A DNA stretch of 64,000 bases from positions 42,343 to 106,342 of the forward strand of contig CAZXCI010000001.1 of NCBI GenBank assembly GCA_964639285.1. Direction: 5' to 3'. Position numbers and translations under genes: made by a program. Shown one piece after another: positions 2,352-42,278 of this stretch. Source of the DNA: an uncultured Candidatus Saccharibacteria bacterium. GTDB lineage: Bacteria; Patescibacteriota; Minisyncoccia; Phycocordibacterales; XYD1-FULL-46-19. The number at the start of each line of letters is the position of its first letter. The first letter of the stretch is position 1. The notes under the pieces are model-generated. The model saw only the letters and a list, made by a program, of their open reading frames with translations. It did not search any database and was not told where the DNA came from.

Positions 2352-3378
2352 TCTGAACAAAATGAGAAATAAATTGTTAATTATTACTCAAAAAGTAAAT
2401 AAGGATGACCAAATCCTCGGCTTTTTCCATCGTTGGATTGAAGAATTTGCTAAACATTACGAAAAGGTAACTGTGATTTGTTTGGAACAAGGAATTTTCT
2501 CTCTGCCCAGTAATGTCAAAATCTTATCTTTAGGTAAGGAAAAAAAAATAGGAAGAATCAAATATTTATTTAATTTTTATAAATACATTTGGCAGGAGAG
2601 AAAGAATTACGGTTCTGTTTTTGTTCATATGAACCCTATTTATATTATTTTGGGGGGCCTCTATTGGCATCTGGAGGGAAAGAAAATTGCTCTTTGGTAT
2701 ACGCATAAGCAAGTTGACCTGAAGCTCAAAATCGCCGAAAAGTTGACCGATACCATCTTTTCCGCTTCAGTCGAAAGTTTCCGTTTACCAAGTAGCAAGC
2801 TTGTTGTGACCGGCCATGGTATTGATACTGATTTGTTTCGACCTCAAGATGGAGAGCATGAGGAGTTTGTTATCTTGTCGGTGGGGCGTTTAGCTAAAAC
2901 AAAAAATCACCATCTTTTGATTGAGGCCCTGGCCCATTTGCCTCAAATGGCTAAACCGTGGAAGCTCTTGATTATTGGCGGGGCAATTTATCCTGAAGAT
3001 TTTATTTATCAAGAGGATCTCCTTAGTTTAATTAAAAAATTCAATTTAGAAGATCGGATAACAATGACCGGCTCAATTTTGCCAAGTGGTATGGTTGAGT
3101 ATTATCAGTCGGCCGACTTACTCGTTAACTTAAGCGACACTGGCAGTTTAGACAAGGTAGTTCTTGAGGCGATGGCTTGTGGCTTGAGTATTGTCTCCTG
3201 CAACGAGGCCTTTGCTAAAATTTTGTCCAAAGATTTGTTTGTCGAGAAAGATCCAACTAGTATCTCTCTAGCTATTGTTCGAGCATTGGCGTTGTCAACT
3301 AACAGTCAAAATCGGGATTATATTGTTGCTAATCATAATTTGGTTCGGCTAATTGACAAAATCAGAGGATTGCTATGA
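2344..3378 (+). CDS. Glycosyltransferase family 1
   Basis: Motif SLDKVVLEAMACGLSIVSCNEAF. Same glycan locus. Confidence 0.7.
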   Translation: MFNLNKMRNKLLIITQKVNKDDQILGFFHRWIEEFAKHYEKVTVICLEQGIFSLPSNVKILSLGKEKKIGRIKYLFNFYKYIWQERKNYGSVFVHMNPIYIILGGLYWHLEGKKIALWYTHKQVDLKLKIAEKLTDTIFSASVESFRLPSSKLVVTGHGIDTDLFRPQDGEHEEFVILSVGRLAKTKNHHLLIEALAHLPQMAKPWKLLIIGGAIYPEDFIYQEDLLSLIKKFNLEDRITMTGSILPSGMVEYYQSADLLVNLSDTGSLDKVVLEAMACGLSIVSCNEAFAKILSKDLFVEKDPTSISLAIVRALALSTNSQNRDYIVANHNLVRLIDKIRGLL

Positions 3379-30964: not shown

Positions 30965-33430
30965 ATGGAAAACTCGCGAGAGGATAAATCTGCGGAAAAT
31001 AAAGAAGGCCTCAATTTCTATGAGGTAGCTCAAAGACGAAGAGATCTAAGACAGGAATTAAAGAGAGTTAGGCCCGAACTCGATAACCAGGATCCGCTCC
31101 TTGATCGGGCTTATAAGGAACCACTGGCTGAGGTTGAGGAACAAGCCTCTCGTTTCAAAATCGCTGATTTCAAAAAGCCAGAAAATTCCTCTGGTTTGAG
31201 AGGGGCCATAGATTTTCTTAAAGGACAAAAAGCTTCTTACGAAAAGTCTTTGGAATCAGAAACTTCTCCGGCTATTGCCCCAGAATTAGCCGAGGTTCTC
31301 AGGATGAAAGAGATTGTCAAAAGATATAAAGAATTTCGTCTTCGTCGAATGCTGGAAATTCTTGATCGAAGCATCTCGCCCACCACCAGAAAAAGGAATG
31401 AGTCAATTTTGCGTCTAATCACAGAGGAAATCAAAAATAGTGAAGAAGCCCTACAAAAAATGGATCTTCCTCTCCTTCGCCAAGCGGAGCTTCTGGGCTA
31501 TAAAGAAGACTTGGCGCGCAGTGGTCATATTTGTATTACTCCCAGTGTGGCCAAAGATTTGGAGGCGATCGGGGATCGAATGCTTACGGGCAAACCGATT
31601 CTCCTTCATGGACCAACGGGGACGGGTAAAACTTCCTTGGCTCGTTTTGCCACAGCTCATTTTATGGGGAAGGATCCGGAGATGGTCTTTTGTAATCCGC
31701 AAACGAAACAATCAGATGTCTACGGTAAAACCGGACTTCGCGCTGTTCCTGGTGGGGAGGGAGCGATTGAAACAGTCGAGATATATGGTCCGCTAGCTCG
31801 AGCGATGATTGAAGGAAAGCCTGTTATCTTCGACGAGTTCACCGCTTTGCCAAAAGAGCAAATGGTCTTCATCAAGGGAATTTTTAATGCCAAAATCGGG
31901 GACAAAATAAATATTAGTGGGAATGGGGTTGTTGAAATCAAGCCTGGTTTCCAAATGATTTTCACGGCGAATTTGAAATCAGAGAAAAATCCAGAGAGAC
32001 AGGATCTTCCGCCAGAAATTGCTCGCGAGTTTGAACAAAATAATCTAGAAATTAAATACAATGACCCGGCCGAGACTTATGACATCATCCTCTCACGTCT
32101 CTTGGGAAAAGATGATTCCTTAGAACTCTCTTTCTTTGATTTGAATACTACTTTGCCTAAATTATGTGAGGCTATGTCTGAAATCCAAGAGTCTTACACC
32201 AACGAAACAGATAAAGAAGTAGCTCGTCGAGCGGGAGCAATGGATGCTTCTGGTAAGGTTTATTCTTTGAAAAAATTTGTGATGACTCAGGGCTCGATTG
32301 AGGCCATCTTATCTTCGTGGTTGGTTGAGAAGCAAACGGGTAAAAAGGAGAGAAGTTTTTCGGAATTCTTAGATGAACGTCTGAAGACGGCTTTAACTTT
32401 CAAAGAGTACCCTAAAGAGGATAGAATTTTGGCGGCTAAAATCTTAGCCTCTAAGGGTTTCTTATTGACACTCACGGCCAAAGATCTTGATTTGCCGGAG
32501 GATATATTTAGTTTTAATACCATCAGGCAAATGCGCGGAGAAGATGCGACTGAAGAATTAAAAAATAAATCAGGAGACGTTAAACGGCTTAATTTGCGCG
32601 AAGTGGCCGAATTGGATCCCTTCAACAAGAGAGCTAACATGCTAAGACAACAGGCGGAAGATCTCCTCGGCCTCGGTGATCGAGAAGGGGATCCTTTTTT
32701 GAGTGATTTTGACAGAGCGTTTGGGGGAGTTTTTGCTGGAGAGAAAAAGGGTATTATTTCCACCCCCTTCACCTACACCAACCCCGACACTAACCAGGTG
32801 GAACTCCAAGAAACCATCACTCTTGATCTCGAAGCTAAACTCCAATCAACTCTCGCTTTCTACCAATCCATCAACCTTGATATTCCCCCTGACTTTGAAG
32901 ACCAAATCCGTGACATCTGGTCTCGTCATCAAGACGAGATTGAACAAGCCATTGCTACCCAAGGCTTCAATGACCTTCTCCTCCTTCCCCCCACCCCTAA
33001 TCTCCCAGACTTAGCAAACAAAACCGAGATGGAACAAGGCTACTGGACTTCCGACAACTTCACCGAAGGTGGCGGTTTCGCCCAAGCCAAGAGCCAAAAC
33101 ACTAACCAAACCCGTCTTCTCTTAGTCCACCACACCCAAAATCTCCAAGACCACCCTCTCCTCAAGCAAACTCTCAATATCAAGGGCCAAGACGTTAACT
33201 TAAGTGAAGCCCTCACCTTAGAAGACTACCTTCTCTTCCAGAGACAATATTTTGCTCAAAACAACAAACACTTAGATGAAGACGGCTGGACCTGGCTAGC
33301 CACTCATTCCGGCCCTCGCCTGGTCTGCGCCCGCTGGTTTCCTGGCGATCACCGGCTCCGCGTCGATGCGGGTGACCTCACCAGCCAGGATGGCTATCTC
33401 GGTGTCCGCCCCACCCGCTGTTTCTTGTGA
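30965..33430 (+). CDS. DGR target protein 1: AAA+ (MoxR/CobS-like, AAA_5) ATPase fused to C-terminal C-type-lectin-fold variable domain
   Basis: Walker A ILLHGPTGTGKTSLARFA, Walker B PVIFDEFTAL. The C-terminal 225 aa are identical to the tail of ORF 37193-38155 and end in VR1 (GPRLVCARWFPGDHRLRVDAGDLTSQDGYLGVRPTRCF). Confidence 0.75.
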   Translation: MENSREDKSAENKEGLNFYEVAQRRRDLRQELKRVRPELDNQDPLLDRAYKEPLAEVEEQASRFKIADFKKPENSSGLRGAIDFLKGQKASYEKSLESETSPAIAPELAEVLRMKEIVKRYKEFRLRRMLEILDRSISPTTRKRNESILRLITEEIKNSEEALQKMDLPLLRQAELLGYKEDLARSGHICITPSVAKDLEAIGDRMLTGKPILLHGPTGTGKTSLARFATAHFMGKDPEMVFCNPQTKQSDVYGKTGLRAVPGGEGAIETVEIYGPLARAMIEGKPVIFDEFTALPKEQMVFIKGIFNAKIGDKINISGNGVVEIKPGFQMIFTANLKSEKNPERQDLPPEIAREFEQNNLEIKYNDPAETYDIILSRLLGKDDSLELSFFDLNTTLPKLCEAMSEIQESYTNETDKEVARRAGAMDASGKVYSLKKFVMTQGSIEAILSSWLVEKQTGKKERSFSEFLDERLKTALTFKEYPKEDRILAAKILASKGFLLTLTAKDLDLPEDIFSFNTIRQMRGEDATEELKNKSGDVKRLNLREVAELDPFNKRANMLRQQAEDLLGLGDREGDPFLSDFDRAFGGVFAGEKKGIISTPFTYTNPDTNQVELQETITLDLEAKLQSTLAFYQSINLDIPPDFEDQIRDIWSRHQDEIEQAIATQGFNDLLLLPPTPNLPDLANKTEMEQGYWTSDNFTEGGGFAQAKSQNTNQTRLLLVHHTQNLQDHPLLKQTLNIKGQDVNLSEALTLEDYLLFQRQYFAQNNKHLDEDGWTWLATHSGPRLVCARWFPGDHRLRVDAGDLTSQDGYLGVRPTRCFL

Positions 33431-33478
33431 GGTTAGGTTGTATTTTTGATTTTGGTTATTGTTTGAGATTTTTGGTTT
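32765..33478 (+). repeat. 714-bp direct repeat copy A (C-terminal variable domain + VR + 3' flank)
   Basis: Identical to 37490-38203 where compared: the protein tail is identical over 225 aa, alternative-frame translations are identical, and the VR and 55 bp downstream are identical. Confidence 0.85.
33311..33423 (+). other. DGR variable repeat VR1
   Basis: 113-bp homology to TR (33702-33814). All 18 mismatches fall at positions where TR has adenine. GC-rich 3' end ggtgtccgccccacccgctgttt (IMH-like). Confidence 0.85.
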
Positions 33479-33701
33479 ATTTTTTAAAAATTCTTCGGTG
33501 AGTATGATTGATCTGACTTAGGGTCGGTCTGCCGAAGCGCTCAATAAAACTGAAGCTGGATTTGTTTTGAGAGCAAATTCATAAAGTCTTGATCTGTTAG
33601 AGTGGAAATAAAAGAAACAGCAGTTTTGCCTTGGGGAAGTGCCCTGATAAACGAAGTATTGTTTCCAAGAGAGCGGGGATAAAGCAAAACTAATGTGGGA
33701 C

Positions 33702-33814
33702 GGCCCTCGCCTGGTCAACGCCAACTGGAATCCTGACAATCACCAGCTCAACGTCAATGCGAATGACCTCACCAACCAGAATAGCAATCTCGGTGTCCGC
33801 CCCACCCGCTGTTT
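33702..33814 (+). other. DGR template repeat (TR)
   Basis: Encodes an AAY-rich template (GPRLVNANWNPDNHQLNVNANDLTNQNSNLGVRPTRCF). The listed ORF 33693-33998 is this template, not a gene. Confidence 0.85.
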
Positions 33815-34189
33815 TTATGCCAAGTTTCGAGAATATTTTATCCAACCTTGGGTCATCCGACCTATTTCTTGGAGTTTACTCTCAATCTCTAAATATTGCT
33901 TAGTGTCTATGATTTGGCAATTTAGAGAAAGGCGAAAAAGGATTTTGAGCAGTTCCACTTTAGTATTGGCTCGGAGGAGGACTTTTTCTTTTTCGTAGCG
34001 GGAGGATTGATTAGCTAGAGTAAAAATTTCCATTGATTCCAAAAGGGAATTTTCTAGTTTTTCTCCTAGGGTGTAACGCTCGTGTTTGGGAAATTTGAAG
34101 ATTAATTTGTGCGTAATCTCGTATAAGACGAGAAGTTTGATAACAATTGGTATCTCTAATTTTGAATAATCACAATGGCCGTTGTCCAT
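33815..34189 (-). CDS. avd: Avd-like accessory variability determinant (four-helix-bundle protein, TIGR02436-like)
   Basis: 124 aa. DYSKLEIPIVIKLL...FPKHERYTLGEKLENSLLE...ANTKVELLKILFRLSLNCQIIDTKQYLEIESKLQEIGRMTQGWIK matches the bAvd/IVS-protein pattern. On the opposite strand to RT, with a 15-bp overlap of their 5' ends. Confidence 0.65.
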   Translation of the reverse strand: MDNGHCDYSKLEIPIVIKLLVLYEITHKLIFKFPKHERYTLGEKLENSLLESMEIFTLANQSSRYEKEKVLLRANTKVELLKILFRLSLNCQIIDTKQYLEIESKLQEIGRMTQGWIKYSRNLA

Positions 34190-35155
34190 AAAAGTTATGA
34201 CGAATTATTTAGCCTTTATAATCTTTTTCGTGCCTGGAGGAAGTTTCGGCGGGGCAAGACCAGAAAAAAAGATATTCTGGATTACGAATTGCATTTGGAA
34301 GACAACCTCTTTAATTTATATGAAGCTTTATGCCAGGATATTTACGAACATTCAGCTTATCAATATTTTCAAATTTTTGACAATAAAAAGAGGGATATCT
34401 CTAAAGCGGAGGTGAGAGATAGAATTGTCCACCAAATTATTTATGATTATATACTTGGTATCTTTGAACCAGACTTTATATCCGATTCTTATGCTTCCAG
34501 ATTAAATAAAGGATCATACAAAGCTCTCGGGGCTTTTCAGTACTTTATCAAACTTAATCATTACTCTCAAAAAACTTGCTTTGTTCTGAAGTGCGATGTT
34601 AAAAAATATTTTGATAACATTAGTCACGAGATCCTTCTCCGTCTGATTAAAGAAAGAGTTGTTGATGATAAAGTATTTTTTATTATTCAAAAAATAATAA
34701 AAAGTTATTCTTCCGGTGATAATCGAGGTATTCCTCTTGGCAATATCACGAGCCAGATTTTTGCTAACATTTACCTCAATCAACTGGATCATTATGTTAA
34801 AAAAGAATTAGGTTGCCGTTTTTATGTTAGGTACAACGATGATTTTGTCATTCTTTCAGAATCTTCCCGTTGACTGGAAGAAATCCGAAGCAAAATAATT
34901 GCTTTTTCAGAAGAAGAGTTATCTCTAAATATTCCTCTTGGAAAAACAAGTTTGAGGAAAATAACTTGGGGCGTGGATTTTCTCGGATTTACTGTCCTGC
35001 CGGGGGCGATTCTCTTAAGAGACAAGACGAAAAGTAAGATGTTTGCCAATATTAGCTCACGTAATATCCATTCATATTTTGGCATTTTAAAGCACTGTAA
35101 TTCTTATAACCTGAGGCGGAAGATACTCTCAATGGATAAACTGGACAGAGTTTGA
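34175..35155 (+). CDS. DGR reverse transcriptase (single frame interrupted by one in-frame TGA at 34871-34873)
   Basis: N-terminal SYDELFSLYNLFRAWRKFRRGK. RT motif IPLGNITSQIFANIYLNQLDHYV. YVRYNDDFVIL (YxDD). After the TGA the same frame continues into the thumb region ...WGVDFLGFTV... ending at 35155. Total 326 codons. Confidence 0.85.
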
Positions 35156-35167
35156 TAAAATATTGGC

Positions 35168-37171
35168 ATGGAAGAGCCTAATGATATCGAGACAAAAAAT
35201 GGAGAGGATATATCCCCAGAGACAGAAAATGCCCACGCTGAGGCGGTGGCCTTGGTGGAGAAAAATCGCGACTTTTTTGAACATTACGCTAAGGGGAAGA
35301 TTCAAATTGAACCGGCACCGGCGGGGCTGGGGACTTTTGCCTTTGATCTAGAAAAAAATACGATTTATCTCAACTCGCTTTTTTTTCAAAAAATGGGGTT
35401 GCCCGAAGAGAAAACAATTTTTGCTACTCTCCACGAGATCGAGCACTTTATGGAAAAAATCCAAATTCTCTCGGAGGAAGGCGGGCAAAGAACTTTTACC
35501 AAATTTCTCTCCCGTCTTAAGGCCTCGCGTGCTTTCTCTTTGATAGATAATTGTGTGGCTGATATCAGGCAGAATCGAGCGGTTATCTCAAAAACCAATA
35601 GAGGGATGGCTGAGCTGGAGACGACGATGTACCAGGAAGATCTTTTTGCGGAAACCGATTTTCTTGCCCGACCTCGACATATTCAATTTAGTGAAGCGCT
35701 TTTGCGGGAATCGCGAGTGCCGAGTGAGAAGTGCCAAGTGGCGCCCGAAGTGAGACAGGCGCTGGAAGAAATAGCCAAAGTTTCCAATCTGTTGGAAGTG
35801 ATGACCAATCCGGAGACTCCGATGTCTTTACGCTTGAAATTGCAAGACAAATTTATCTGGCCCAAGGTGCAAGCTCTTTTGGATCAAGACATTGAAGAGA
35901 AGAAAAAACAAAAGGAAGAAGATAAAAAGAAAAAAGGAGGCGCCGATACTCTCGATGGAGCGGAAGGGGCGGAAGGCGGTGCGGGCGATGGGGGAGCCGG
36001 CGAAAATGATAATAAAGAAAGAGGGAAAAAAGGAGGAGATAACAAAGCTCAAACAGAAGACGGGGAAGAGAGTCAGGGAGGAGAAGGAGAGAGTAAGGCG
36101 GGTGGCGAAAATGATGAAGAAGAAACTGATCCCAACAAAATTTTTGCAAAGGATTATGAGGAGGCCGAGAGCAAATTCCCTGAGGCCGTTCCGTTAGAGA
36201 AAATTGAGGAGGCCTTCAAAAAATGGCAAGAGGCGCAAAAAAACCAAAATACCCCCGACCAGGCTGATGAAGCCTACGCCCAAAATCTTGGCGTGAAGAA
36301 GGAAGCCTTACAAAATTATCGTCGACTAGTTGAGTCCCTGGAGAAAATTGTGAATCCTGAAACTGATATGCCCGTGATTGAAGAATTGCGGAATCTTTTT
36401 AATCGGATAATCTCCAAGAGACTTAAATTGGCCCAAGCTCCTAAATACCCGGTATCGGAGGGGGACGAGTTAGTTGACCCGGCGCAATTGGTGGCCGACG
36501 TTAAAGCGGGGAATTTTGAGCCCAAGGTCTGGGAAGATGTAGAGATCAAGGAAAAGAAGGGTGACAAATTCGGCGAAGTGGAGATCACTCTTATCTGTGA
36601 CCGTTCTGGTTCGATGAATGGGGTTAAAGCGGAGGAACAAAGAAAGTCGGCAGTCTTAGTGATGGAGGCACTGAAAGAATTTGCCGAACTTTGCGAGCAG
36701 GAAAAAATAAATATTGATAAACCTTTGGAAGTTAGATCAGAGATTTACAGCTTTGCCAGTAGTGAGGATGACGACAAACCACTGAAGAAGATGTCCCCGG
36801 AGCTAGGCGAGGTCGAGCGGATAAATGTTTTAGAGAAGCTCAAAGAGATAACTGGTTCCACCACCGATTTTCGTTGTTTGGAAGCGATTGCCGCTAATCT
36901 CTCAGAAGAAATCAGGATCAAATTAAAAATTGCGGAATTGAAAAAGATCGTGATTGTCTTCACTGATGGCGAGAGCGACGATCCGGTTCGAACCCAAGTG
37001 AATCTTAAGAATTTACGCGACAACGGCGTTTTTGTTATCGGTGTGGGCATCACTTCCGCTGGTCAATCAGTTTTATCAACCTATGCGCCTGAAGCTCAAG
37101 TGGTGGAAGATGTCTCTCGTCTGCCCCTTGTTTTGGCCGAGCTTCTCAAGGAGCATTTACATAATCTCTAA
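35168..37171 (+). CDS. vWA-domain protein with N-terminal HExxH region and acidic low-complexity linker (CobT-like partner of the AAA ATPase)
   Basis: HEIEHF (HExxH). A long E/K/G/D-rich linker (KKKQKEEDKKKKGGADTLDGAEGAEGG...). MIDAS DxSxS in EITLICDRSGSMNG. Von Willebrand A fold at the C-terminus. Confidence 0.7.
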   Translation: MEEPNDIETKNGEDISPETENAHAEAVALVEKNRDFFEHYAKGKIQIEPAPAGLGTFAFDLEKNTIYLNSLFFQKMGLPEEKTIFATLHEIEHFMEKIQILSEEGGQRTFTKFLSRLKASRAFSLIDNCVADIRQNRAVISKTNRGMAELETTMYQEDLFAETDFLARPRHIQFSEALLRESRVPSEKCQVAPEVRQALEEIAKVSNLLEVMTNPETPMSLRLKLQDKFIWPKVQALLDQDIEEKKKQKEEDKKKKGGADTLDGAEGAEGGAGDGGAGENDNKERGKKGGDNKAQTEDGEESQGGEGESKAGGENDEEETDPNKIFAKDYEEAESKFPEAVPLEKIEEAFKKWQEAQKNQNTPDQADEAYAQNLGVKKEALQNYRRLVESLEKIVNPETDMPVIEELRNLFNRIISKRLKLAQAPKYPVSEGDELVDPAQLVADVKAGNFEPKVWEDVEIKEKKGDKFGEVEITLICDRSGSMNGVKAEEQRKSAVLVMEALKEFAELCEQEKINIDKPLEVRSEIYSFASSEDDDKPLKKMSPELGEVERINVLEKLKEITGSTTDFRCLEAIAANLSEEIRIKLKIAELKKIVIVFTDGESDDPVRTQVNLKNLRDNGVFVIGVGITSAGQSVLSTYAPEAQVVEDVSRLPLVLAELLKEHLHNL

Positions 37172-37192
37172 TCTCGTAATATAATACCCCAT

Positions 37193-38155
37193 ATGTCCCC
37201 CGAATCCCTCTCTCCCCACCCCGACCAAACCCAAGAGGAACTCCGTCCTCTCTATCAACAAAGACTCAATTCTCTCAAAGATCCTCTCCATCAAGGCCGT
37301 GATCAATATGCCCAAGACCTAAAGAACGGTCTCTTTGATGATCAAGAGGGTGAAGAACCAGGCCAAGGAGAGAAACGCCAAGAGGAAGCTCAACAAAAGC
37401 TTCTTAAACTCCTCGCCCAAGCCCAGAAACTCAAAGCTCTCCTCGACAGCGGAGAACCTCTTCCTCAATTATCTCCCGTCATCACCACTCCCTTCACCTA
37501 CACCAACCCCGACACTAACCAGGTGGAACTCCAAGAAACCATCACTCTTGATCTCGAAGCTAAACTCCAATCAACTCTCGCTTTCTACCAATCCATCAAC
37601 CTTGATATTCCCCCTGACTTTGAAGACCAAATCCGTGACATCTGGTCTCGTCATCAAGACGAGATTGAACAAGCCATTGCTACCCAAGGCTTCAATGACC
37701 TTCTCCTCCTTCCCCCCACCCCTAATCTCCCAGACTTAGCAAACAAAACCGAGATGGAACAAGGCTACTGGACTTCCGACAACTTCACCGAAGGTGGCGG
37801 TTTCGCCCAAGCCAAGAGCCAAAACACTAACCAAACCCGTCTTCTCTTAGTCCACCACACCCAAAATCTCCAAGACCACCCTCTCCTCAAGCAAACTCTC
37901 AATATCAAGGGCCAAGACGTTAACTTAAGTGAAGCCCTCACCTTAGAAGACTACCTTCTCTTCCAGAGACAATATTTTGCTCAAAACAACAAACACTTAG
38001 ATGAAGACGGCTGGACCTGGCTAGCCACTCATTCCGGCCCTCGCCTGGTCTGCGCCCGCTGGTTTCCTGGCGATCACCGGCTCCGCGTCGATGCGGGTGA
38101 CCTCACCAGCCAGGATGGCTATCTCGGTGTCCGCCCCACCCGCTGTTTCTTGTGA
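37193..38155 (+). CDS. DGR target protein 2: standalone C-type-lectin-fold variable protein
   Basis: 320 aa. Unique roughly 95-aa N-terminus, then the same 225-aa domain as target 1 ending in an identical VR. TATAAT at 37180-37185 only 7 nt upstream of the ATG. Confidence 0.7.
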   Translation: MSPESLSPHPDQTQEELRPLYQQRLNSLKDPLHQGRDQYAQDLKNGLFDDQEGEEPGQGEKRQEEAQQKLLKLLAQAQKLKALLDSGEPLPQLSPVITTPFTYTNPDTNQVELQETITLDLEAKLQSTLAFYQSINLDIPPDFEDQIRDIWSRHQDEIEQAIATQGFNDLLLLPPTPNLPDLANKTEMEQGYWTSDNFTEGGGFAQAKSQNTNQTRLLLVHHTQNLQDHPLLKQTLNIKGQDVNLSEALTLEDYLLFQRQYFAQNNKHLDEDGWTWLATHSGPRLVCARWFPGDHRLRVDAGDLTSQDGYLGVRPTRCFL

Positions 38156-38203
38156 GGTTAGGTTGTATTTTTGATTTTGGTTATTGTTTGAGATTTTTGG
38201 TTT
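37490..38203 (+). repeat. 714-bp direct repeat copy B
   Basis: See copy A (32765-33478). Confidence 0.85.
38036..38148 (+). other. DGR variable repeat VR2 (identical to VR1)
   Basis: Same 113 bp as VR1. Matches TR except at TR adenines. Confidence 0.8.
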
Positions 38204-39799: not shown

Positions 39800-40459
39800 A
39801 TGGAAATAATCCCTTCAATTATTGCCTCTGATGCCGAAGAAGCTCGTACTCGAATGGTGCGGGTCGAAGGTCTTGTCGATTGGGTTGAGTTTGATGTGGC
39901 CGACGGCGTCTTTGTTCCGAGTTTCACTTGGCCAATGCTTCTGGGGCAAGCACCAGAGGATCTCAAAGAGGTGGACGGCAAGACAAAGATTAGTGCCCAC
40001 TTGATGGTAGAGCATCCCGAGACTCTCATTGATGACCATCGCCCCGGCGGGGCGAGCTGGCAAGACGTAGCAGATAGAATAATTTTTCATTACGAGGCAA
40101 CTGATGAAATTGAGAAAATAATTAGAAATGTTGGCGTGCATATGAGTTTAGGAATTGCTTTAGAATTGCCTACTCCGGTGGAGAAAATTTATCCCTATTT
40201 AGATAAAATAAAATTAGTTCAATTGATGAGTATCGAACGAGTGGGTTATTCTGGCGAAAAATTTGACGAACGAGTTTTTGAAAAAATTAAAACTCTTAAA
40301 ACTAACTGGCCAGATGTTAAAATTATTGTCGATGGGGGGATTGATTTAGAAATTGGCAAAAGGCTCAAAGAAGCCGGTGTTGATGGTTTAGTTGTTGGGT
40401 CACGAATCTGGAATGCTCCCAATATTGAAGAAGCCATACGCGATTTTCAAAGTTTGTAG
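39800..40459 (+). CDS. rpe: Ribulose-phosphate 3-epimerase
   Basis: IIPSIIASDAEEARTRMVRVEGLVDWVEFDVADGVFVP and the C-terminal VDGGI. Confidence 0.85.
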   Translation: MEIIPSIIASDAEEARTRMVRVEGLVDWVEFDVADGVFVPSFTWPMLLGQAPEDLKEVDGKTKISAHLMVEHPETLIDDHRPGGASWQDVADRIIFHYEATDEIEKIIRNVGVHMSLGIALELPTPVEKIYPYLDKIKLVQLMSIERVGYSGEKFDERVFEKIKTLKTNWPDVKIIVDGGIDLEIGKRLKEAGVDGLVVGSRIWNAPNIEEAIRDFQSL

Positions 40460-40467
40460 CTAAATTT

Positions 40468-41298
40468 ATGATACTTATTGATGACAAATTAAAATTTTTA
40501 GAAGGCAAAGCGAAGAATATTCGTCGTTCAATTATTGAGATGCTAGTAGAGGCACGATCTGGGCATACAGCAGGAGCCTTAGGTATGGCCGATATTTTCA
40601 CCGCCCTTTATTTTGGTCTTTTGAATCATGATGTTAAGAAGCCGGACTGGCCAGAGAGAGACAGGTTAATTTTGTCGAATGGTCACATTTGTCCAGTTTT
40701 GTATGCGACCTTAGCTGAGGCGGGTTATATTGAGAGAAAAGAATTATTGACCTTGCGCAAATATGGCTCGCGCTTACAGGGTCATCCGCATCGCGAATTT
40801 TTGCCATTGATGGAGACAAGCTCGGGCCCTCTAGGTGAAGGTTTATCGCAGGCGGTGGGCATGGCTCTAGCGGATCGTCTTGATAGTGGCAAGAGTTCGC
40901 AAAAATTCTTTTATTGTTTGATGAGTGATGGCGAATTACAGGAGGGGAGTACTTGGGAGGCAGCAATGTTGGCGGGTAAAGAAAAGCCCCATAATCTTAT
41001 TGCTGTTATCGACCGCAATAATATCCAAATTGATGGTCATACCGAAGATGTGATGCCCTTAGAATCGCTCGCTGACAAATGGCGAGCCTTTGGTTGGCAG
41101 GTAATCGAGATTGACGGACACAGCTTCCAAGAAATTTTTGATGCCGTGGGCATGGCCAAATCTGTCTTCAATCGCCCGACGGTTATTATTGCCCACACTA
41201 CCCCTGGCAAAGGCGTCCTAGAATTTGAAAATAAATTTGAATGGCACGGCAAACCTCCGACTAAAGAGGAGGGGATCGAAGCCTTGAAAGAAATATGA
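40468..41298 (+). CDS. Transketolase, N-terminal (TPP-binding) subunit of split enzyme
   Basis: GHTAGALGMADIFTALYFGLL and the GDG-like SDGELQEGSTWEA TPP motif. Confidence 0.85.
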   Translation: MILIDDKLKFLEGKAKNIRRSIIEMLVEARSGHTAGALGMADIFTALYFGLLNHDVKKPDWPERDRLILSNGHICPVLYATLAEAGYIERKELLTLRKYGSRLQGHPHREFLPLMETSSGPLGEGLSQAVGMALADRLDSGKSSQKFFYCLMSDGELQEGSTWEAAMLAGKEKPHNLIAVIDRNNIQIDGHTEDVMPLESLADKWRAFGWQVIEIDGHSFQEIFDAVGMAKSVFNRPTVIIAHTTPGKGVLEFENKFEWHGKPPTKEEGIEALKEI

Positions 41299-42278
41299 GT
41301 AACCTTAACCCCAAAATTTACGAACTTAATGTTGAGCAGAAGGCGATTCGGAGTGGCTTCGGTGAGGGTCTGGTTGAGGCGGGGGAGAAAAATGAAAATG
41401 TCGTGGTTTTGTGCGCGGACTTGAAGGAGTCGACCCGTGTTGAAGAATTTTCCAAGAAATTCCCCGAGAGATTTATTGAGTTGGGTGTAGCCGAGCAGAA
41501 TATGGCTGGCGTGGCTTCGGGAATGGCCACTATGGGCAAAGTTCCTTTTATGGTCTCTTACGCTATCTTCTCGCCAGGGCGGAATTGGGAGCATGTCCGG
41601 ACAACGATTTGTTACAACAATACTAATGTCAAAATTGTTGGAGCTCATGCGGGGCTTAATGTTGGACCTGACGGCGGTTCGCATCAGATGCTTGAAGATA
41701 TTGCTCTCACCCGAGTTTTGCCTAATATGACCGTGGTCGTCCCTTGTGATGCTATTGAAGCGAAGAAAGCAACGCTGGCTCTGGCCGAATCTATTGGCCC
41801 GGCTTATCTGCGTTTGGCGAGAGAAAAGAGTCCTGTCGTGACAACCGAAGAATCAGACTTTGTTATTGGTAAGGCAAATACTTTGCTTGATCAAGAGAGC
41901 CCTGAAGCGACTCTTATTGCTTGTGGCCCGATGGTTTATCGGGCCCTTATCGCTGCTAAGAAATTGGATCGAGAGGGGATTAAGGTTAGTGTTATCAATA
42001 ATCATACGATTAAACCCTTGGATGAAGAAACCTTGCTTGAGGCCGTGCAAAAAGCGGGGGCTGTTGTTGCTTGCGAAGAGCATCAAATTGCCGGCGGGAT
42101 GGGGAGTGCGGTGGCTGAATTATTAGCCAAGACAAATCCTGTGCCCATGGAGTTTGTTGGTGTTGCTGATCGTTTCGGCCAATCTGGTGAACCCGCCGAG
42201 CTTATGGAGCATTATGGCCTTGGTGTTGATGATATTATCGATGCGGTAAAAAGAGTAATTAAGAGGAAAAAGTCTTAA
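41295..42278 (+). CDS. Transketolase, C-terminal (pyrimidine-binding) subunit
   Basis: Pyr domain plus the transketolase C-terminal domain. ATGA overlap with the upstream subunit. Confidence 0.85.
   Translation: MSNLNPKIYELNVEQKAIRSGFGEGLVEAGEKNENVVVLCADLKESTRVEEFSKKFPERFIELGVAEQNMAGVASGMATMGKVPFMVSYAIFSPGRNWEHVRTTICYNNTNVKIVGAHAGLNVGPDGGSHQMLEDIALTRVLPNMTVVVPCDAIEAKKATLALAESIGPAYLRLAREKSPVVTTEESDFVIGKANTLLDQESPEATLIACGPMVYRALIAAKKLDREGIKVSVINNHTIKPLDEETLLEAVQKAGAVVACEEHQIAGGMGSAVAELLAKTNPVPMEFVGVADRFGQSGEPAELMEHYGLGVDDIIDAVKRVIKRKKS

Follow-up and report, generated by a model that had tools for sequence, protein, structure and literature searches.

We analyzed a 64,000-nucleotide stretch of DNA (the window) from an uncultured Candidatus Saccharibacteria bacterium, contig CAZXCI010000001.1, which carries a diversity-generating retroelement (DGR) whose reverse transcriptase (RT) gene is interrupted by an in-frame TGA. 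The RT gene lies on the forward strand. It starts with ATG at 34175, meets a TGA at 34871-34873 and is then open in the same frame from 34874 to a second TGA at 35153-35155. The N-terminal open reading frame (ORF) (34175-34873, 232 aa) encodes the fingers and palm; its motifs 1-5 contain the SQ dipeptide (NITSQIF) as well as the YNDD box. The interrupting TGA is codon 233 and is followed by a C. The C-terminal continuation (34874-35155, 93 codons and a stop) is intact and encodes motifs 6-7 and the thumb. The first-pass annotation, made from the sequence alone, had described a DGR RT broken by one in-frame TGA, with a second ORF at 34952-35155. That listed ORF marks only the first TTG, and the open frame begins immediately 3' of the TGA. 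Its frame arithmetic was correct (the two starts are 777 nt, or 3x259, apart), and the frame is open through to 35155. As it had also stated, translation through the stop gives a contiguous RT, here of 326 aa. The Pfam RVT_1 match (E 3.9e-22, residues 70-274 of the readthrough protein) runs across the stop position, and the protein is colinear with homologs of 326-328 aa with no gap at that point. All 27 family-invariant residues are kept in the continuation, and the single TGA is the only lesion in the gene. On the forward strand of the window there are 11 long ORFs that end in TGA, and the RT is the only one with a long frame (94 codons) past the TGA that shows homology to the remainder of the same protein. 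Since this arrangement is unique among the 11, it is more than chance.

The remaining parts of the element are those of an ordinary Patescibacteria-type DGR, namely two target genes, a template repeat (TR), a divergent Avd gene, the RT gene and a gene for a VWA-domain protein. The RT shows the features of the DGR clade, with an RVT_1 domain, the SQ dipeptide in motif 4, a hallmark of DGR RTs (PMC3521204), and the YNDD box. Its best solved relative is the Bordetella RT (bRT, 8ub7; E 5.3e-32, residues 8-288). Target gene 1 (30965-33430, forward strand) encodes an 821-aa protein with a MoxR-like AAA_5 domain (Pfam E 5e-11) and a C-terminal variable domain, and contains a 114-nt variable repeat, VR1 (33310-33423, forward strand). 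Target gene 2 (37193-38155, forward strand) encodes a protein of 320 aa that has the same last 222 residues as target 1, and contains VR2 (38035-38148, forward strand), which is identical to VR1. Target 2 belongs to a family of ~320-aa Patescibacteria proteins. Each VR ends 7 nt upstream of the stop codon of its target ORF. The TR (33701-33814, forward strand) is also 114 nt long and is 84% identical to each VR, and in the window all 18 of the 18 mismatches fall on TR adenines. The Avd gene (33815-34189, reverse strand, 124 aa; Pfam bAvd PF22296, E 1.7e-16) adjoins both the TR and the RT gene. Between the RT gene and target 2 lies the gene for the VWA-domain protein (35168-37171, forward strand, 667 aa; Pfam VWA E 5e-11). 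The same RT-VWA gene order was found in two close relatives, L002 and L003.

Several details of this arrangement were observed in addition. The Avd gene is opposite in strand to the TR and the RT gene. Its stop codon directly adjoins the last base of the TR (33814/33815), and at the other end the first 15 nt of the gene (34175-34189) are shared with the start of the RT gene. Because these divergent starts overlap, the promoter region for both genes must sit within coding sequence. A 101-aa ORF on the forward strand (33693-33998), called in one of the Logan contigs (L004), begins just before the TR, reads through it and lies opposite Avd. This is probably a spurious call arising from the protein-like sequence of the TR. 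An AAA-VWA pair is wired into the DGR, with the MoxR-like AAA_5 domain of target 1 fused to the diversified C-terminal domain, and the VWA protein after the RT carries a long acidic and lysine-rich low-complexity linker. The pair is reminiscent of the NTPase/vWA conflict systems that Kaur et al. 2020 reportedly linked to DGRs.

To identify the ancestral codon, the RT was compared with its relatives. Hundreds were found at 60-88% identity, and those at 60-70% came from metagenome-assembled genomes of Paceibacterota, Minisyncoccia, Komeilibacteria, Falkowbacteria and other Patescibacteria. At the position of codon 233, TGG (Trp) is present in both of the closest intact homologs, P0001/L002 (88%) and P0002/L003 (86%); it is one of the one-step ancestors that the first-pass annotation had proposed to look for in orthologs. 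Because these homologs carry TGG, the lesion is a single G-to-A transition, TGG to TGA. Together with the next codon they read TGG-TTG and TGG-CTG, the CTG form being that of L003, and the C that follows the TGA is ancestral, inherited from a TGG-CTG as in L003. Across 105 related loci the aligned residue varied (K in 27, R in 16, D in 14, E in 14, H in 6, N in 5, S in 5, Y in 4, W in 2, and others), and none of the 105 had a stop at this position. RT pseudogenes with several in-frame stops and/or frameshifts were found at three loci (L023, 974-1949; L029, 3001-3996; L085, 1501-2435), so RT decay does occur in the clade, at a few percent. Two other loci (L030 and L031) had only partial RT matches.

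The interrupted gene was not confined to one assembly. The 232-aa product is on record exactly, in an NCBI contig of 376,383 bp and in Logan assemblies. The TGA was found at the same codon, with the open frame behind it, in six assemblies, comprising the NCBI contig and five Logan run assemblies. These represent two haplotypes. Haplotype A is 100% identical to the window and includes the Logan contigs from SRR8925806 (L001) and SRR8925774 (L112). Haplotype B consists of three mutually identical contigs from SRR8925766 (L004), SRR8925719 (L005) and SRR8925803 (L006), and differs from the window at about 180-200 positions (~92.5-95% identity overall). Among about 15 billion proteins there was no full-length allele of this RT at 90% identity or above, and a degenerate DNA pattern for RYNDDFVILSESSR-TGN-LEE had no match in JGI metagenome contigs. 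We concluded that the TGA is real and apparently fixed in the sampled lineage.

We then asked how TGA is used elsewhere in the window. It ends 10 other long ORFs, several with ATGA stop/start overlaps; the ATGA junctions at 1170-1173 and 3375-3378, which the first-pass annotation had cited, are real. Pfam domains are complete in these TGA-terminated ORFs (for example Glycos_transf_1, 172/172, and RNase_HII, 193/199), and the in-frame extensions past the 10 stops are short or contain further stops. No other gene in the 64 kb needs an in-frame TGA. Genetic codes 4 and 25 are excluded, because TGA terminates 10 other genes with complete domains, which bears out the earlier judgment that reassignment under code 25 was unlikely. 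An Rfam scan of 33200-35400, including selenocysteine insertion sequence (SECIS) elements, gave no match at E up to 1, and a tRNA scan of the window gave tRNA-Thr only, with no suppressor tRNA. Folding of 34862-34960 was unremarkable (z -1.8). A small hairpin that places the UGA in its loop occurs in the intact L002 as well, and haplotype B has lost a second hairpin, 13 nt 3' of the stop. The base after the 10 genuine TGA stops is A, T or G and never C, and the RT stop is TGA-C.

Comparison of the two haplotypes revealed a mosaic pattern of strain divergence across 33302-37514. There are no differences between A and B in 33487-34018, 34047-34398 and 34533-34884, the last of which holds the TGA. 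Between and beside these blocks lie sharply bounded tracts with 13-25% divergence, at 33326-33486, 34399-34532 (25%) and 34885-35668; the last begins 12 nt past the stop and runs into the VWA gene. As a genomic baseline we used codons 168-667 of the VWA gene, where the proportion of synonymous differences (pS) was 0.034 and that of non-synonymous differences (pN) 0.0025. The 576 identical RT bases have 0 differences where ~20 would be expected if neutral and ~5 if constrained. The identical blocks are thus closer than the baseline allows, which indicates that the DGR core was very recently shared between the strains. The divergent tracts are most likely recombination imports, and the ratio of non-synonymous to synonymous change (dN/dS) within them most likely records selection in the donor lineages. 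This pattern indicates frequent exchange with divergent DGR alleles, by homologous recombination, in the Patescibacteria population. The Avd protein is identical in A and B, and its gene has four synonymous differences clustered within 28 nt, to which the same caution about recombination applies when they are read as a sign of selection. In the tract 34399-34532, haplotype B resembles L002 and L003, and the window resembles the wider family consensus.

The variable repeats were examined at the level of the assembled consensus. VR1 and VR2 lie within a perfect direct repeat of ~714 nt (32765-33478 and 37490-38203), which takes in the last 222 codons of both targets with the VRs and continues for 48 nt after the stop codons. 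This repeat looks like the product of a recent gene conversion or duplication, after which the copies have not diversified. The first-pass annotation had taken identical, undiversified VRs to fit an inactivated RT. The identity holds; the argument from it is weakened, because VR1 and VR2 are identical as part of a larger perfect repeat, which points to conversion or duplication and is not a direct read-out of RT inactivity. In haplotype B, the first base of the contigs is exactly 30 nt ahead of window position 33332, the counterpart of a TR adenine. For assemblies with k = 31, such a break point implies that the two VRs of haplotype B differ from this position onward. VR1 of haplotype B (L004, 9-122) is identical in two different runs, with contigs unbroken through it. 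Compared with the TR it has 13 adenine mismatches and three non-adenine mismatches (C>G, T>C and C>T, at window-equivalent 33400, 33405 and 33409), which lie at or just upstream of the GC-rich 3' element. These three are either ordinary mutations that accumulated without re-homing or changes beyond the homing boundary. Variants of the target 2 VR were also sought across samples, and only the NCBI copy was recovered, as short-read assemblies break at the repeat. At the consensus level, the VRs fit an inactive or nearly inactive element. In the 3' flank of VR1, ~15 positions of haplotype B differ from the window.

Between haplotypes A and B, the TR is identical (141/141 nt) and the VRs differ at 17 adenine sites. 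We considered this contrast as a sign of activity after the TGA arose and rejected it, since the TR lies in the recently shared block and VR1 of haplotype A was overwritten by the 714-nt conversion.

In an alignment to bRT, the stop falls 10 residues past the YxDD box, at about residue 225 of 328. Truncation takes away 94 residues, corresponding to about bRT residues 226-328, with motifs 6-7 (…KTS…, G-DFLGF) and the whole thumb. The thumb of an RT is needed to hold the template-primer. From this general RT architecture, the 232-aa fragment is predicted to be inactive. Our preferred interpretation, to which we assign a probability of roughly 75%, is that a DGR of the Patescibacteria type, intact in its other parts, has been inactivated or strongly attenuated by this TGA, a nonsense mutation of recent origin. 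The course of events would be as follows. A G-to-A change turned the Trp codon 233 of an otherwise intact DGR into TGA. As TGA is a normal stop here, ribosomes would terminate at codon 233 and release a 232-aa fragment that keeps the catalytic YNDD. If this fragment is inactive, synthesis of complementary DNA from the TR and mutagenic homing would stop or drop to the level of natural UGA leakiness, and the variable regions would then be frozen. We infer both the loss of activity and the order of these events. No second lesion was found in the RT, Avd, TR or target genes; for this reason, and because the TR/VR mismatches of haplotype A are still adenine-only, the lesion is likely to be young. 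A recent inactivating mutation was among the options listed by the first-pass annotation, and it is the best supported of them. The locus is thus a DGR by descent and anatomy, and probably not a working one.

Several observations weigh against this interpretation. In the 93 post-stop codons, A and B differ by 21 synonymous and 11 non-synonymous changes, all within a recombination tract, and the resulting dN/dS of 0.11 is the same as between intact homologs. The TGA is also shared by two haplotypes whose divergence at synonymous sites elsewhere is 3.4%, so it has persisted or been spread by recombination and has not been purged. In addition, the RT stop has a UGA-C context, which is the weakest termination context in E. 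coli and is shared by 0 of the 10 genuine TGA stops of the window. If a near-cognate tRNA-Trp inserts Trp at this codon, the exact ancestral RT would be restored, and the mutation may be hypomorphic and not null. As for the dN/dS value, we considered it as proof of continued translation and rejected it, because the differences sit in sharply bounded tracts beside blocks with none.

Four alternative explanations were weighed. The TGA could be an artefact of sequencing or assembly, or a minor strain polymorphism caught by the consensus, both of which the first-pass annotation had offered. DiGReF allowed sequencing errors as a source of RT truncations by point mutation (PMC3521204), and L001, being 100% identical, may stem from the same reads as the NCBI assembly. 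Sequencing error was rejected because five runs, assembled independently and representing two haplotypes ~200 positions apart, carry the same TGA. Strain polymorphism found no support, as neither the protein collection nor the JGI metagenome contigs contained a sense-codon (TGG) allele of this lineage, and we regard an artefact or polymorphism as very improbable. Alternatively, TGA could be a sense codon here, read through code 4, code 25 or as selenocysteine. Code 25 is used by some Patescibacteria lineages (Gracilibacteria, Absconditabacteria), and the Trp of the homologs is what code 4 would predict. Such recoding is hardly credible given the ten ORFs that end in TGA with complete domains and with tight or overlapping downstream starts, and given that the RT is the one gene in 64 kb that would require it. 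It is further disfavored by the empty SECIS/Rfam scan, by a window tRNA complement of tRNA-Thr only, and by the homologs, as Cys never occurs at this variable, non-catalytic position among the 105 relatives. It is also conceivable that translation starts anew, for instance at TTG 34952, and that the resulting C-terminal piece joins the 232-aa fragment in an active split enzyme; the TTG-start ORF exists and the downstream sequence is intact. A start at this TTG would drop 26 residues including the motif-6 region, there is no ATG or GTG between the stop and 34952, no convincing ribosome-binding site precedes the TTG by eye (no formal scan was made), and no such split occurs in any of the 105 relatives. 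A split RT is accordingly most improbable.

The remaining alternative keeps the TGA as a stop that is leaky or selected for readthrough, so that low-frequency decoding of UGA by tRNA-Trp(CCA) would yield wild-type RT and attenuate the dosage of hypermutation instead of abolishing it, with the TGA tolerated or even favored. In E. coli, background UGA readthrough by endogenous tRNA-Trp(CCA) is visible (PMC13092985), and the ancestral Trp is the very residue that such miscoding inserts. The TGA-C context unlike that of all 10 true stops, the downstream frame with every invariant residue intact, and an Avd gene that differs between haplotypes by synonymous changes only are all consistent with this explanation. 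So is the presence of the TGA on two haplotypes in five runs with no repaired allele, although recombination tracts come as close as 339 nt on its upstream side and 12 nt on its downstream side. Against it, the stop is absent from all 105 relatives and from the closest homologs, and the C after it was inherited from TGG-CTG and not acquired. No conserved stimulatory structure was found, the 3' hairpin being lost in haplotype B and the Rfam scan having no match. The identical blocks, with 0 differences where ~5 were expected, suggest very recent shared ancestry, which leaves no time for readable selection, and the VRs are static at the consensus level. On balance we consider leaky or selected readthrough unlikely. 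Programmed readthrough, another option of the first-pass annotation, is supported neither by conservation of the stop nor by any signal, and some low-level leakiness may still occur. A still more specific version, in which the TGA is maintained as a throttle or as an off-switch that one mutation would turn back on, with a few percent of UGA-C codons read by tRNA-Trp and the allele spread between strains by recombination, seems improbable. Nothing positively supports such a role: the stop is unconserved, no signal accompanies it, and no sign of activity postdating the TGA was seen. If adenine mutagenesis were nevertheless ongoing despite the fixed TGA, stop-codon leakiness would act as dosage control of a hypermutation system.

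A DGR RT inactivated by a nonsense mutation is an already described kind of event, and in this respect the locus is a routine case. The DiGReF survey of Schillinger et al. 2012 (PMC3521204, Fig. 4A) included DGR RTs with a nonsense mutation (Ruminococcus gnavus ATCC 29149), a frameshift or an insertion sequence. These truncated-RT DGRs keep adenine-only TR/VR changes and were read as very recent inactivations or possible sequencing errors (PMC3521204). Like the R. gnavus DGR, the present element combines a single premature RT stop with adenine-only TR/VR mismatches and otherwise intact parts. It differs from the DiGReF cases in that the stop was verified in five independent runs and two recombinant haplotypes, which excludes error, and in its TGG-to-TGA change, its UGA-C context and its host from the Patescibacteria, or candidate phyla radiation (CPR). 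With other Patescibacteria/CPR DGRs it shares an RT of ~326 aa, the ~320-aa target family and RT-VWA synteny; it differs from them by the interrupted RT ORF and by VRs made identical through the 714-nt conversion or duplication. Paul et al. 2017 reportedly gave an earlier description of Patescibacteria/CPR DGRs. CPR DGRs are also mentioned by Roux et al. 2021 (PMC8144416), who classed DGRs as active or inactive by the enrichment of single-nucleotide variants in their VRs. The element also resembles the DGR of Bordetella phage BPP-1 (bRT-Avd) in its homologous RT, its Avd partner, the adenine-specific mutagenesis signature, the position of the VR at the 3' end of the target and the GC-rich 3' element. 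Unlike BPP-1, it is chromosomal, has Avd on the opposite strand and two targets, and its RT is truncated. In gag-pol of murine leukemia virus, UAG readthrough controls RT dosage, and the stop is conserved and followed by a conserved pseudoknot. Here too, the in-frame stop precedes RT sequence that is essential, and readthrough, if it occurs, would keep the supply of active RT limited. In contrast to the viral stop, this one is found within the RT domain itself, is specific to the lineage and lacks a conserved structure downstream.

The locus provides a clean, well-verified snapshot of the first step in the decay of a DGR in an uncultivated Patescibacteria lineage. Because gene callers give a 232-aa 'RT' here, the element may be assigned a wrong size or missed by DGR pipelines. 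The locus could also serve as a natural negative control for measurements of VR diversity in the sample series.

The genes around the DGR are chromosomal housekeeping genes, encoding GatB, transketolase, RNase HII and glycosyltransferases. One of them, the ORF at 40429-41298, has a Transketolase_N match and ends in TGA, and the next long ORF is 41265-42278. If the latter encodes the C-terminal half, the transketolase would be split in two, and its junction TGA would count as another genuine stop.

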